A DNA stretch of 64,000 nt from Leucoraja ocellata (taxonomy: Eukaryota): contig JAWMAR010000090.1 of the NCBI GenBank assembly GCA_036785375.1, positions 3,224,001-3,288,000 on the forward strand, written 5' to 3'. Position numbers and translations under genes: made by a program. Within the stretch, counting starts at the first letter, position 1; every line of letters starts with the position of its first letter. Shown here in pieces: positions 56,724-57,165 of this stretch. The notes below the pieces were generated by a model. The model saw only the letters and a program-made list of their open reading frames with translations, had not been told where the DNA came from and ran no database searches.

Positions 56724-57165
56724 GAGGCCCAAGGCAAACTGGAGTAACAGCACCTCATATTTCAGTTGGGCAACCTACAACCCAGCGGTATGAACACTGA
56801 CTTCTCTAACTTCAAGTAACCCTTGCTTTCCCTCGCTCTCCATCCCTCCCCCACCCTAGTTCTCCAACCAGTCTAACATTCCTCCAGATTTAATTTTATC
56901 TCTGTATGCTTCATTGTCAACTTCCCCTAGCTAATTATAATGATCTATTTTACATTTCCCTTGAACTTCATCCCCTTTGATGTCTCGTTTGCACGTCATA
57001 CCCTTCCATATCTCTGTGCCTCCATTTCCCCTGACTCTCAGTCTGAAGAAGGGTCTCGACCGGAAACGCCAGCCATTCCTTCTATCCACAGATGTTGCCT
57101 GTCACGCTGCATAATTTTGTGTTTATCTTTAGTGTAAACAACATCTACTGTTCCTTCCTACACAA
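56724..57165 (+). mobile_element. Penelope-like element 3' fragment (GIY-YIG ORF C-terminus, 3'UTR, hammerhead-bearing pLTR)
   Basis: Reads EAQGKLE*QHLIFQLGNLQPSGMNTDFSNFK* (stop 56817-56819), typical of PLE ORF ends. It is followed by a pyrimidine-rich UTR and CTGAAGAAGGGTCTCGACCGGAAACGCC at 57043. Confidence 0.8.

Follow-up and report, generated by a model that had tools for sequence, protein, structure and literature searches.

The stretch from 56721 to 57165 of the 64,000-nucleotide Leucoraja ocellata window analysed here is what 5' truncation has left of an endonuclease-bearing Penelope-like element (PLE), namely its 3' end with a GIY-YIG endonuclease remnant, an untranslated region (UTR), a hammerhead ribozyme motif and a tail. 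The explanation that best accounts for it, and that we consider very probable, is that this copy is a dead 3' end of an endonuclease-positive (EN+) PLE with Neptune-type features, and that the other copies in the window are shorter insertions of this end, for which the parent's protein, with its reverse transcriptase (RT) and GIY-YIG domains, likely used RNA left uncut by the hammerhead.

The endonuclease remnant (56721..56819, + strand) was identified by translation, by tblastn and through its relatives. Translation of 56724-56819 gives the last 31 codons of a GIY-YIG open reading frame (ORF), with one internal in-frame stop at 56745-56747 and the natural stop at 56817-56819. The remnant shares 61% identity with the endonuclease of a longer locus, L028 (tblastn, E 2e-5), and in related copies the upstream continuation has a match to Pfam GIY-YIG. 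A pyrimidine-rich 3' UTR of 220 nt follows (56820..57039, + strand), belonging to the long-UTR subfamily, here called A2. This UTR is common to the copies at 56721-57165, 34460-34888 and 21086-21404, and is joined to RT and endonuclease at two further loci (L247 and L248). At 57038..57043 (+ strand) lies TCAGTC, which we take to be initiator-like; the 5' ends of the arms place the beginning of most short copies here, making it the putative start of the RNA.

The minimal type I hammerhead motif of this copy (57041..57072, + strand) was judged defective from its sequence, alignment and family frequencies. It is made up of the core CTGAAGA (57043-57049), a bulged A (57050), helix II (57051-57062) and GAAA (57063-57066), with the would-be cut after 57070. 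A C at 57069, where the family has T (U16.1), gives GCC for GUC; a G at 57062 creates a G-G mismatch in the G10.1-C11.1 closing pair of helix II; and a G for C at 57072 breaks helix I. With GCC in place of GUC and pairs broken in both helices, the hammerhead at 56724 is dead and, on its sequence, cannot be an active ribozyme. The sequence past the cut site and the optional tail (57071..57165, + strand) reach the long end (+128 to +133) and carry an internal deletion; in full-length elements, the sequence downstream of the cut site continues into the ORF start. No target site duplication (TSD) of this copy was seen by eye. Its unique flanks attracted essentially no RNA reads (two runs, 96% likeness), a scarcity that is no evidence on expression since the runs may be of related species.

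Two other long copies are present in the window. The second (34460..34888, - strand) is a 5'-truncated member of the same subfamily comprising the endonuclease end, UTR, motif and short 3' end, and its motif at 34537-34564 likewise reads GCC, with C for U16.1. The third (21086..21404, - strand) comprises the endonuclease end and UTR and stops about 10 nt into the motif. The sequence-only reading that preceded this work had the motif joined through a shared UTR to the end of a Penelope-type ORF at 56724 and 34475, with the same ORF end and UTR at 21090. The joint is present at both copies and the third does share the GIY-YIG ORF end and UTR with them; the GTC it gave is not what either copy reads, and its exact motif, CTGAAGA-AGGGTCTCGACCC-GAAAC, occurs a single time in the window. 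As far as sequence can tell, an active hammerhead is impossible in all three of these named copies (56724, 34475 and 21090). The three start within 9 nt of each other, as do three more copies in random loci. This hot spot of 5' ends, the weaker of two, coincides with a small hairpin inside the coding sequence of the endonuclease, with 6 of 29 endonuclease-containing copies beginning within 7 nt (56721, 34888 and 21404 in the window, and L118, L122 and L142). None of the eight independent relatives closest to 56724 shares its start; each continues further upstream. The shared starts would allow a distinct 445-bp non-autonomous subfamily, which these relatives speak against.

A 51-residue endonuclease query returned 76,971 first-look candidates, and an RT together with a C-terminal GIY-YIG domain within one ORF tied to this terminus was found at five loci (L028, L067, L204, L247 and L248). 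L028 encodes an RT (Pfam RVT_1, E 3e-6), a C-X4-C-X2-C linker and a GIY-YIG domain (E 2e-4), with both domain scores slightly below the Pfam curated cut-offs. The same linker separates RT and endonuclease in L017 and L067, and a DKG motif is also present. L067 is a full-length element with motif and tail at both ends, 130-nt repeats of 95% identity and a unit of 4036 bp, and L204 carries motif and tail at both ends over approximately 3.6 kb. In four partial tandems (L070, L200, L202 and L215), the endonuclease end, UTR, motif and tail lead directly into an ORF start, which is the arrangement that defines a pLTR. The parent thus begins with motif and tail, continues with an ORF that encodes an N-terminal region, RT, Cys linker and GIY-YIG, and closes with the UTR and a second motif and tail. 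The proposal that the repeat is a Penelope-like terminal sequence (pLTR and tail) with a minimal type I hammerhead motif is borne out: full-length elements with RT and GIY-YIG that end in this sequence do exist, some with the motif at both ends, so that the refuting case named in that reading does not apply.

None of the six long copies translated has an intact ORF, all containing stops or frameshifts. The first ATG of the parent lies approximately 135 nt past the cut site. In L059 and L070, an open frame of about 55 codons follows a stop within the motif and crosses the tail as far as the first ATG, which overlaps a splice-donor-like site; spliced reads at this site were not seen in four raw RNA runs of low depth. 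A CX2-5CxxC linker is described as a mark of the Neptune and Nematis clades (PMC8557442), and its presence here does not separate the two. Vertebrates are reported to carry Neptune and Poseidon (bioRxiv 10.64898/2026.07.22.740005, a 2026 preprint). Taken together, the linker and this distribution make Neptune the likely clade. Two more distant PLEs were encountered among the fetched loci. One (L112; G000:C922:1671-11670) is a head-to-tail array of at least seven units with a period of approximately 1528 bp. Each unit has a long open frame and contains the 3' half of a PLE only distantly related to this family (29% identity), from the end of the RT through the Cys linker to GIY-YIG; a pattern search found no standard hammerhead core in the array. 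The other (L091; G000:C1:11690013-11700012, 6367-8453, - strand) is a remnant of a more distant family, 32% identical in RT and 42% in endonuclease, and has no clear motif at its own terminus.

The family is very abundant. A 28-nt core query taken from the 34540 copy, with up to 9 mismatches allowed, matched 25 times in the window, whereas 20 sequences shuffled by dinucleotide blocks gave a mean of 0. A profile HMM built from motif and tail, run on the window and on 60 random 10-kb stretches of the genome (600 kb), detected 43 and 253 arms respectively and 0 in the reversed control. The density in the random stretches was 4.2 arms per 10 kb (s.e.m. 0.4), which extrapolates to an estimated 1.45 million arms in the 3.44 Gb genome, a figure that may be high given that loci occur in pairs and the assembly may hold both haplotypes. 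A small library of family sequences covers 6.3% of the random 600 kb. The repeat was earlier described as the most abundant short one, and the commonest 14-mers of the window do come from its tail (19 copies, against 16 for the next unrelated motif). The 56724 locus was found again with its flanks on another contig at 96% identity (L002; G000:C257:2589097-2589545), and several further fetched loci are also present in pairs. Two copies of another very abundant repeat end, presumably LINE-type, flank 56721-57165 in the window (55780-56021 and 57480-58000) and supply its second commonest 14-mers.

The family consensus has a bulged base after A9, a G10.1-C11.1 pair and a palindromic ACGU instead of helix III. 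Helix II has 4 bp and helix I only 2 bp, in line with the short helix I of 2-3 bp first noted. Five copy clusters, 5-18% diverged from their own consensuses, were compared, and all five consensuses show the features of a minimal type I hammerhead, namely the core CUGANGA, GAAA, UH and palindromic helix III positions. The core was expected to be more conserved than its flanks across subfamilies, and this is the case: 0 of 15 catalytic positions vary across the five consensuses compared with 17 of 63 tail positions (Fisher p 0.03, with clusters that are not independent). The only differences between clusters inside the motif are loop changes in helix II and replacements of U-A by U-G in helices I and II. 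UTR length and sequence differ between subfamilies. CpGs in the core are present in every consensus, yet have decayed in around one-fifth of copies. The constant catalytic positions and retained CpGs, set against the differing tails and UTRs, point to selection that would maintain the hammerhead in master elements.

At the level of single copies, 111 unbiased motif-spanning sequences included 23 that keep the core, 8 that also keep helix II and 6 that also keep helix I and so are intact. Helix II had been said to vary while keeping its pairing at three copies in the window. The form at 45783 is found exactly in 19 of 282 aligned copies and is a real subfamily; the variants at 14854 and 40579 are each seen in 1 of 282 and are therefore single-copy decay. 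Two-sided changes in helix II number 0-4 of approximately 274 copies per pair, and covariation in a 17-row alignment was no better than in shuffles, 157 of 500 of which reached its score. Helix II covariation was rejected, the changes being one-sided wobble and decay.

Folding predictions gave probabilities for helices I and II that round to zero in ten of ten monomer contexts. The double hammerhead was predicted at -6.1 and -7.3 kcal/mol compared with -21.1 and -24.2 kcal/mol for the best dimer, placing it 15-17 kcal/mol higher, and neither the monomer nor the double hammerhead is predicted as the stable form. The predicted folding instead pairs the catalytic core with downstream pyrimidines. 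This shows a need for help and says nothing of inactivity. The doubt raised earlier over monomer activity is supported by the folding and by the small number of intact copies. Minimal PLE hammerheads are reported to show low activity in vitro and to receive help from the element's protein (PMC4209133; PMC11167929). In the family consensus, a predicted helix between +5..+10 and +33..+39, joining the core and the first tail pyrimidines, would block the ribozyme fold, and the oldest cluster breaks this helix. At a separate locus (L022; G000:C698:736014-744014, approximately 930-1650 and 2290-2590), helix II, GAAAC and the first tail bases form a 33-bp minisatellite without the CUGA half of the core, and RNA reads with matching 33-37 nt back-steps were observed. 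An Rfam scan of the window returned no match to a hammerhead family; its six matches were all below the gathering score and fell on fold-back hairpins or repeats. Those to plant miRNA families, also below threshold, lie on a fold-back pair at 59002-59119, and such hairpins could pass as miRNA precursors.

The ends of the copies are very regular and likely record the RNA start and the copying start sites of the element. Ends were counted from the C of CUGA in local alignments, accurate to a few bases, over an unbiased set of 276 arms from the window and the 60 random stretches. At the 3' side, 99 arms end at +84..110 and 112 at +118..145, with 28 ending earlier, 12 between and 25 later; the two classes are about 36 nt apart, and TSDs place them near +92 and +128. 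At the 5' side, 101 arms begin at -8..+2, only 9 begin near the cut site (+24..+32), and 33 extend upstream by at least 100 nt. In 252 deduplicated arms, the density of 5' ends per nt is 7.8 at the peak, 0.9 at the cut site and 0.07-0.19 further upstream. In short solo copies (n=84), the base typical of the family is retained in 81% at -1, 70% at -2 (G), 58% at -3 (A) and 43% at -4, and the flanks are at background from -5 upstream.

The TSDs are 11-17 bp long. A TSD score of at least 10 was obtained for 16 of 186 solo arms, compared with 0.5% in mismatched controls, and for 10 of 41 pairs, nine of which combine one long and one shorter end. In the window, short solo copies lie at 45710..45813 (- strand; youngest subfamily with a UUCG loop, intact motif, 12-bp TSD), 4741..4879 (+ strand; long tail, TSD of approximately 13-15 bp) and 28997..29091 (+ strand; short 3' end, 13-bp TSD). 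Head-to-head pairs account for 84 of the 276 arms, forming 42 pairs. Those in the window include a short and a long 3' end (14779..15001, 11-bp TSD), a long and a short 3' end (29549..29706, 12-bp TSD), a pair joined in helix II (58943..59126, 14-bp TSD), a pair joined at a 9-nt palindrome spanning the motif start (12609..12858) and a pair whose + arm (51448) has an intact motif (51341..51536). Of the 31 pairs that could be classed over all fetched loci, 25 combine a long with a short end against 15.5 expected (p 4e-4), a test that left out 32 of 63 pairs having an arm outside both end classes. Of 24 typed pairs, 23 have arms from a single subfamily. All five tail clusters contain long and short copies; the oldest (n=37) has 20 short and 2 long and includes an endonuclease remnant.

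RNA data were taken from four raw runs, of which 1-6% of each was read, made from poly(A) and single-cell libraries that are blind to circles and 5'-OH ends. Reads leave the reference at the same borders as the DNA copies (-2 to -4, +93 and +128), and 93-95% of bulk reads over the stub continue into unlike sequence, being mostly read-through. No pile-up of molecule starts or ends was seen in the fraction read, and reads over the ORF start are scarce. Nine distinct tabulated copies have an intact motif and continue from it to the beginning of the ORF; three of these begin at -8..-4 (L179, L209 and L216) and the rest further upstream. L067 begins at -2.

The two 3' end sites, the long/short pairs and the 5' ends that avoid the cut site fit uncleaved RNA copied from two start sites. 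Under the preferred explanation, the RNA would start at the putative initiator-like TCAGTC, and reverse transcription would start at two fixed RNA sites, +92 and +128. From the downstream repeat, this would yield copies that are long or cut short at random, 56724 being one. From the upstream repeat, synthesis would run off at the RNA 5' end after approximately 95 or 130 nt to leave short stubs, in the manner of strong-stop DNA. Where both cut DNA ends are primed, one per site, the cDNAs would join head to head, with a one-sided tail. Folding of the hammerhead would depend on a second copy and probably on the protein of the element, and in the copies the motif would be a passenger. For PAc, a Poseidon element, reverse transcription is described from two internal sites that define the tail, with both DNA strands cut and extended and uncleaved RNA as the main substrate (PMC11167929). 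Palindromic junctions of the kind seen here have been published as self-priming (PMC3846280), which could account for some head-to-head pairs. Against the model, no such RNA start was seen in the four RNA runs, and only three of the nine ORF-start copies begin at -8..-4. The mostly short oldest cluster would also be expected if stubs copy themselves.

A stronger version of this model is put forward tentatively, as somewhat more apt to be wrong than right. Most of the million-plus stubs would be strong-stop-like cDNAs of a Neptune-type PLE whose RNA starts three bases before the core, stays uncut before copying and is primed from both target ends at two fixed RNA sites. The hammerhead would then serve to take off the first 30 nt with the cap under certain conditions, as a switch rather than the maker of unit-length templates, and some stubs may form a promoter-bearing, SINE-like lineage.

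Such a lineage could also be proposed for the stubs as a whole. The 95-130 nt stubs, and perhaps the 445-bp class, would be a SINE-like non-autonomous family with an internal promoter and both RT start sites, transcribed from new loci and mobilised in trans. This is unlikely as the main account, and the two readings can coexist. Their sharp 5' border and TSDs, the excess of stubs over the 33 arms with long upstream sequence, the mostly short oldest cluster and the six shared starts in the endonuclease ORF are all in its favour, as is the internal TATA-less promoter reported for Drosophila virilis Penelope (PMC2377424). However, long copies sharing the tail changes are present in every one of the five clusters, all eight closest relatives of 56724 extend further upstream, and stub RNA is mostly read-through.

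The pile-up of 5' ends might, instead of an RNA start, mark an RT stop or fold-back site (a palindrome or a purine/pyrimidine border) or a splice acceptor, which we judge quite unlikely. The 9-nt palindrome does span -5..+3 with some pairs joining there, the upstream UTR is 82% pyrimidine and ends in an acceptor-like CAG, a second hot spot coincides with a hairpin, and an intron of D. virilis is reported to end at helix I (PMC4209133). An acceptor cut at -1, however, would remove the G at -2 and A at -3 that most short copies keep; many long copies read through the site, and the same border occurs in solo stubs without a fold-back. The non-autonomous, retrozyme-like family proposed in the sequence-only reading, in which hammerhead cleavage of tandem transcripts gives monomers or circles that reinsert, is extremely unlikely and already contradicted for the copies tested, for although the motif is conserved in master lineages and animal retrozymes are described as PLE pLTR derivatives, some of them in one chondrichthyan genome (bioRxiv 10.64898/2026.07.22.740005), the window holds no unit array, head-to-tail neighbours number 13 among 599 arms of the fetched loci and mostly differ in length or subfamily, copies are dispersed with TSDs and are long and short in all subfamilies, 5' ends are rare at the cut site, few copies are intact, and the motif is of the minimal PLE type with a 2-bp helix I rather than the canonical type of non-LTR retrozymes (PMC7229834).

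The finding is ordinary in that each of its features has been published before: PLE termini with hammerheads, truncation, inverted repeats and tails on one side. What the family offers is natural data in large number on a mechanism that has yet to be settled. Its copy ends match the two-start-site model of PAc in a second PLE type and argue that cleaved RNA is seldom the template. When hammerheads are counted in such genomes, most matches should be expected to be dead passengers. No description of this family in cartilaginous fishes was found in the literature searched, although Repbase, Dfam or supplements may hold it, nor was an account of twin priming in PLEs.

Among known systems, the parent resembles EN+ PLEs of the Neptune and Nematis type, described with a single ORF of RT, CX2-5CxxC linker, DKG and C-terminal GIY-YIG, heavy 5' truncation, partial tandems that give pLTRs, a hammerhead in the pLTR, an adjacent inverted 5'-truncated copy and a one-sided tail of 30-40 bp (PMC8557442). 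It differs in its very high copy number, mostly as 95-130 nt stubs with a fixed 5' border, Neptune being its probable clade. The motif agrees with the minimal type I hammerheads described in metazoan PLEs, with no helix III loop, palindromic 15.2-16.2 positions, an unpaired base between A9 and G10.1 and a G10.1-C11.1 pair, found mostly as single motifs from truncated PLEs with some opposite-strand pairs (PMC4209133). Helix II is 4 bp here compared with 7-8 bp in Schistosoma, and helix I is 2 bp compared with 4-5 bp, the 2-bp helix I being as in D. virilis (PMC4209133). Non-LTR retrozymes of animals share the type I hammerhead, the origin from a PLE terminus and the non-coding short copies; they are described as units of 150-450 bp arrayed head to tail, which typically have active ribozymes of the canonical type and give circular RNAs (PMC7229834; bioRxiv 10.64898/2026.07.22.740005), whereas the copies here are dispersed, solo or head-to-head, with a minimal and mostly decayed motif. 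PAc of Anolis has, as here, two favoured 3' end positions past the hammerhead, separated by the length of the tail, and no sign, as described, of cleaved RNA as template (PMC11167929). The two differ in clade, judged by the linker, and in the ORF, which in PAc starts in stem II and here has its first ATG well past the cut site. The mechanism of PAc was shown in vitro, and by analogy the same mechanism would operate in the present family.
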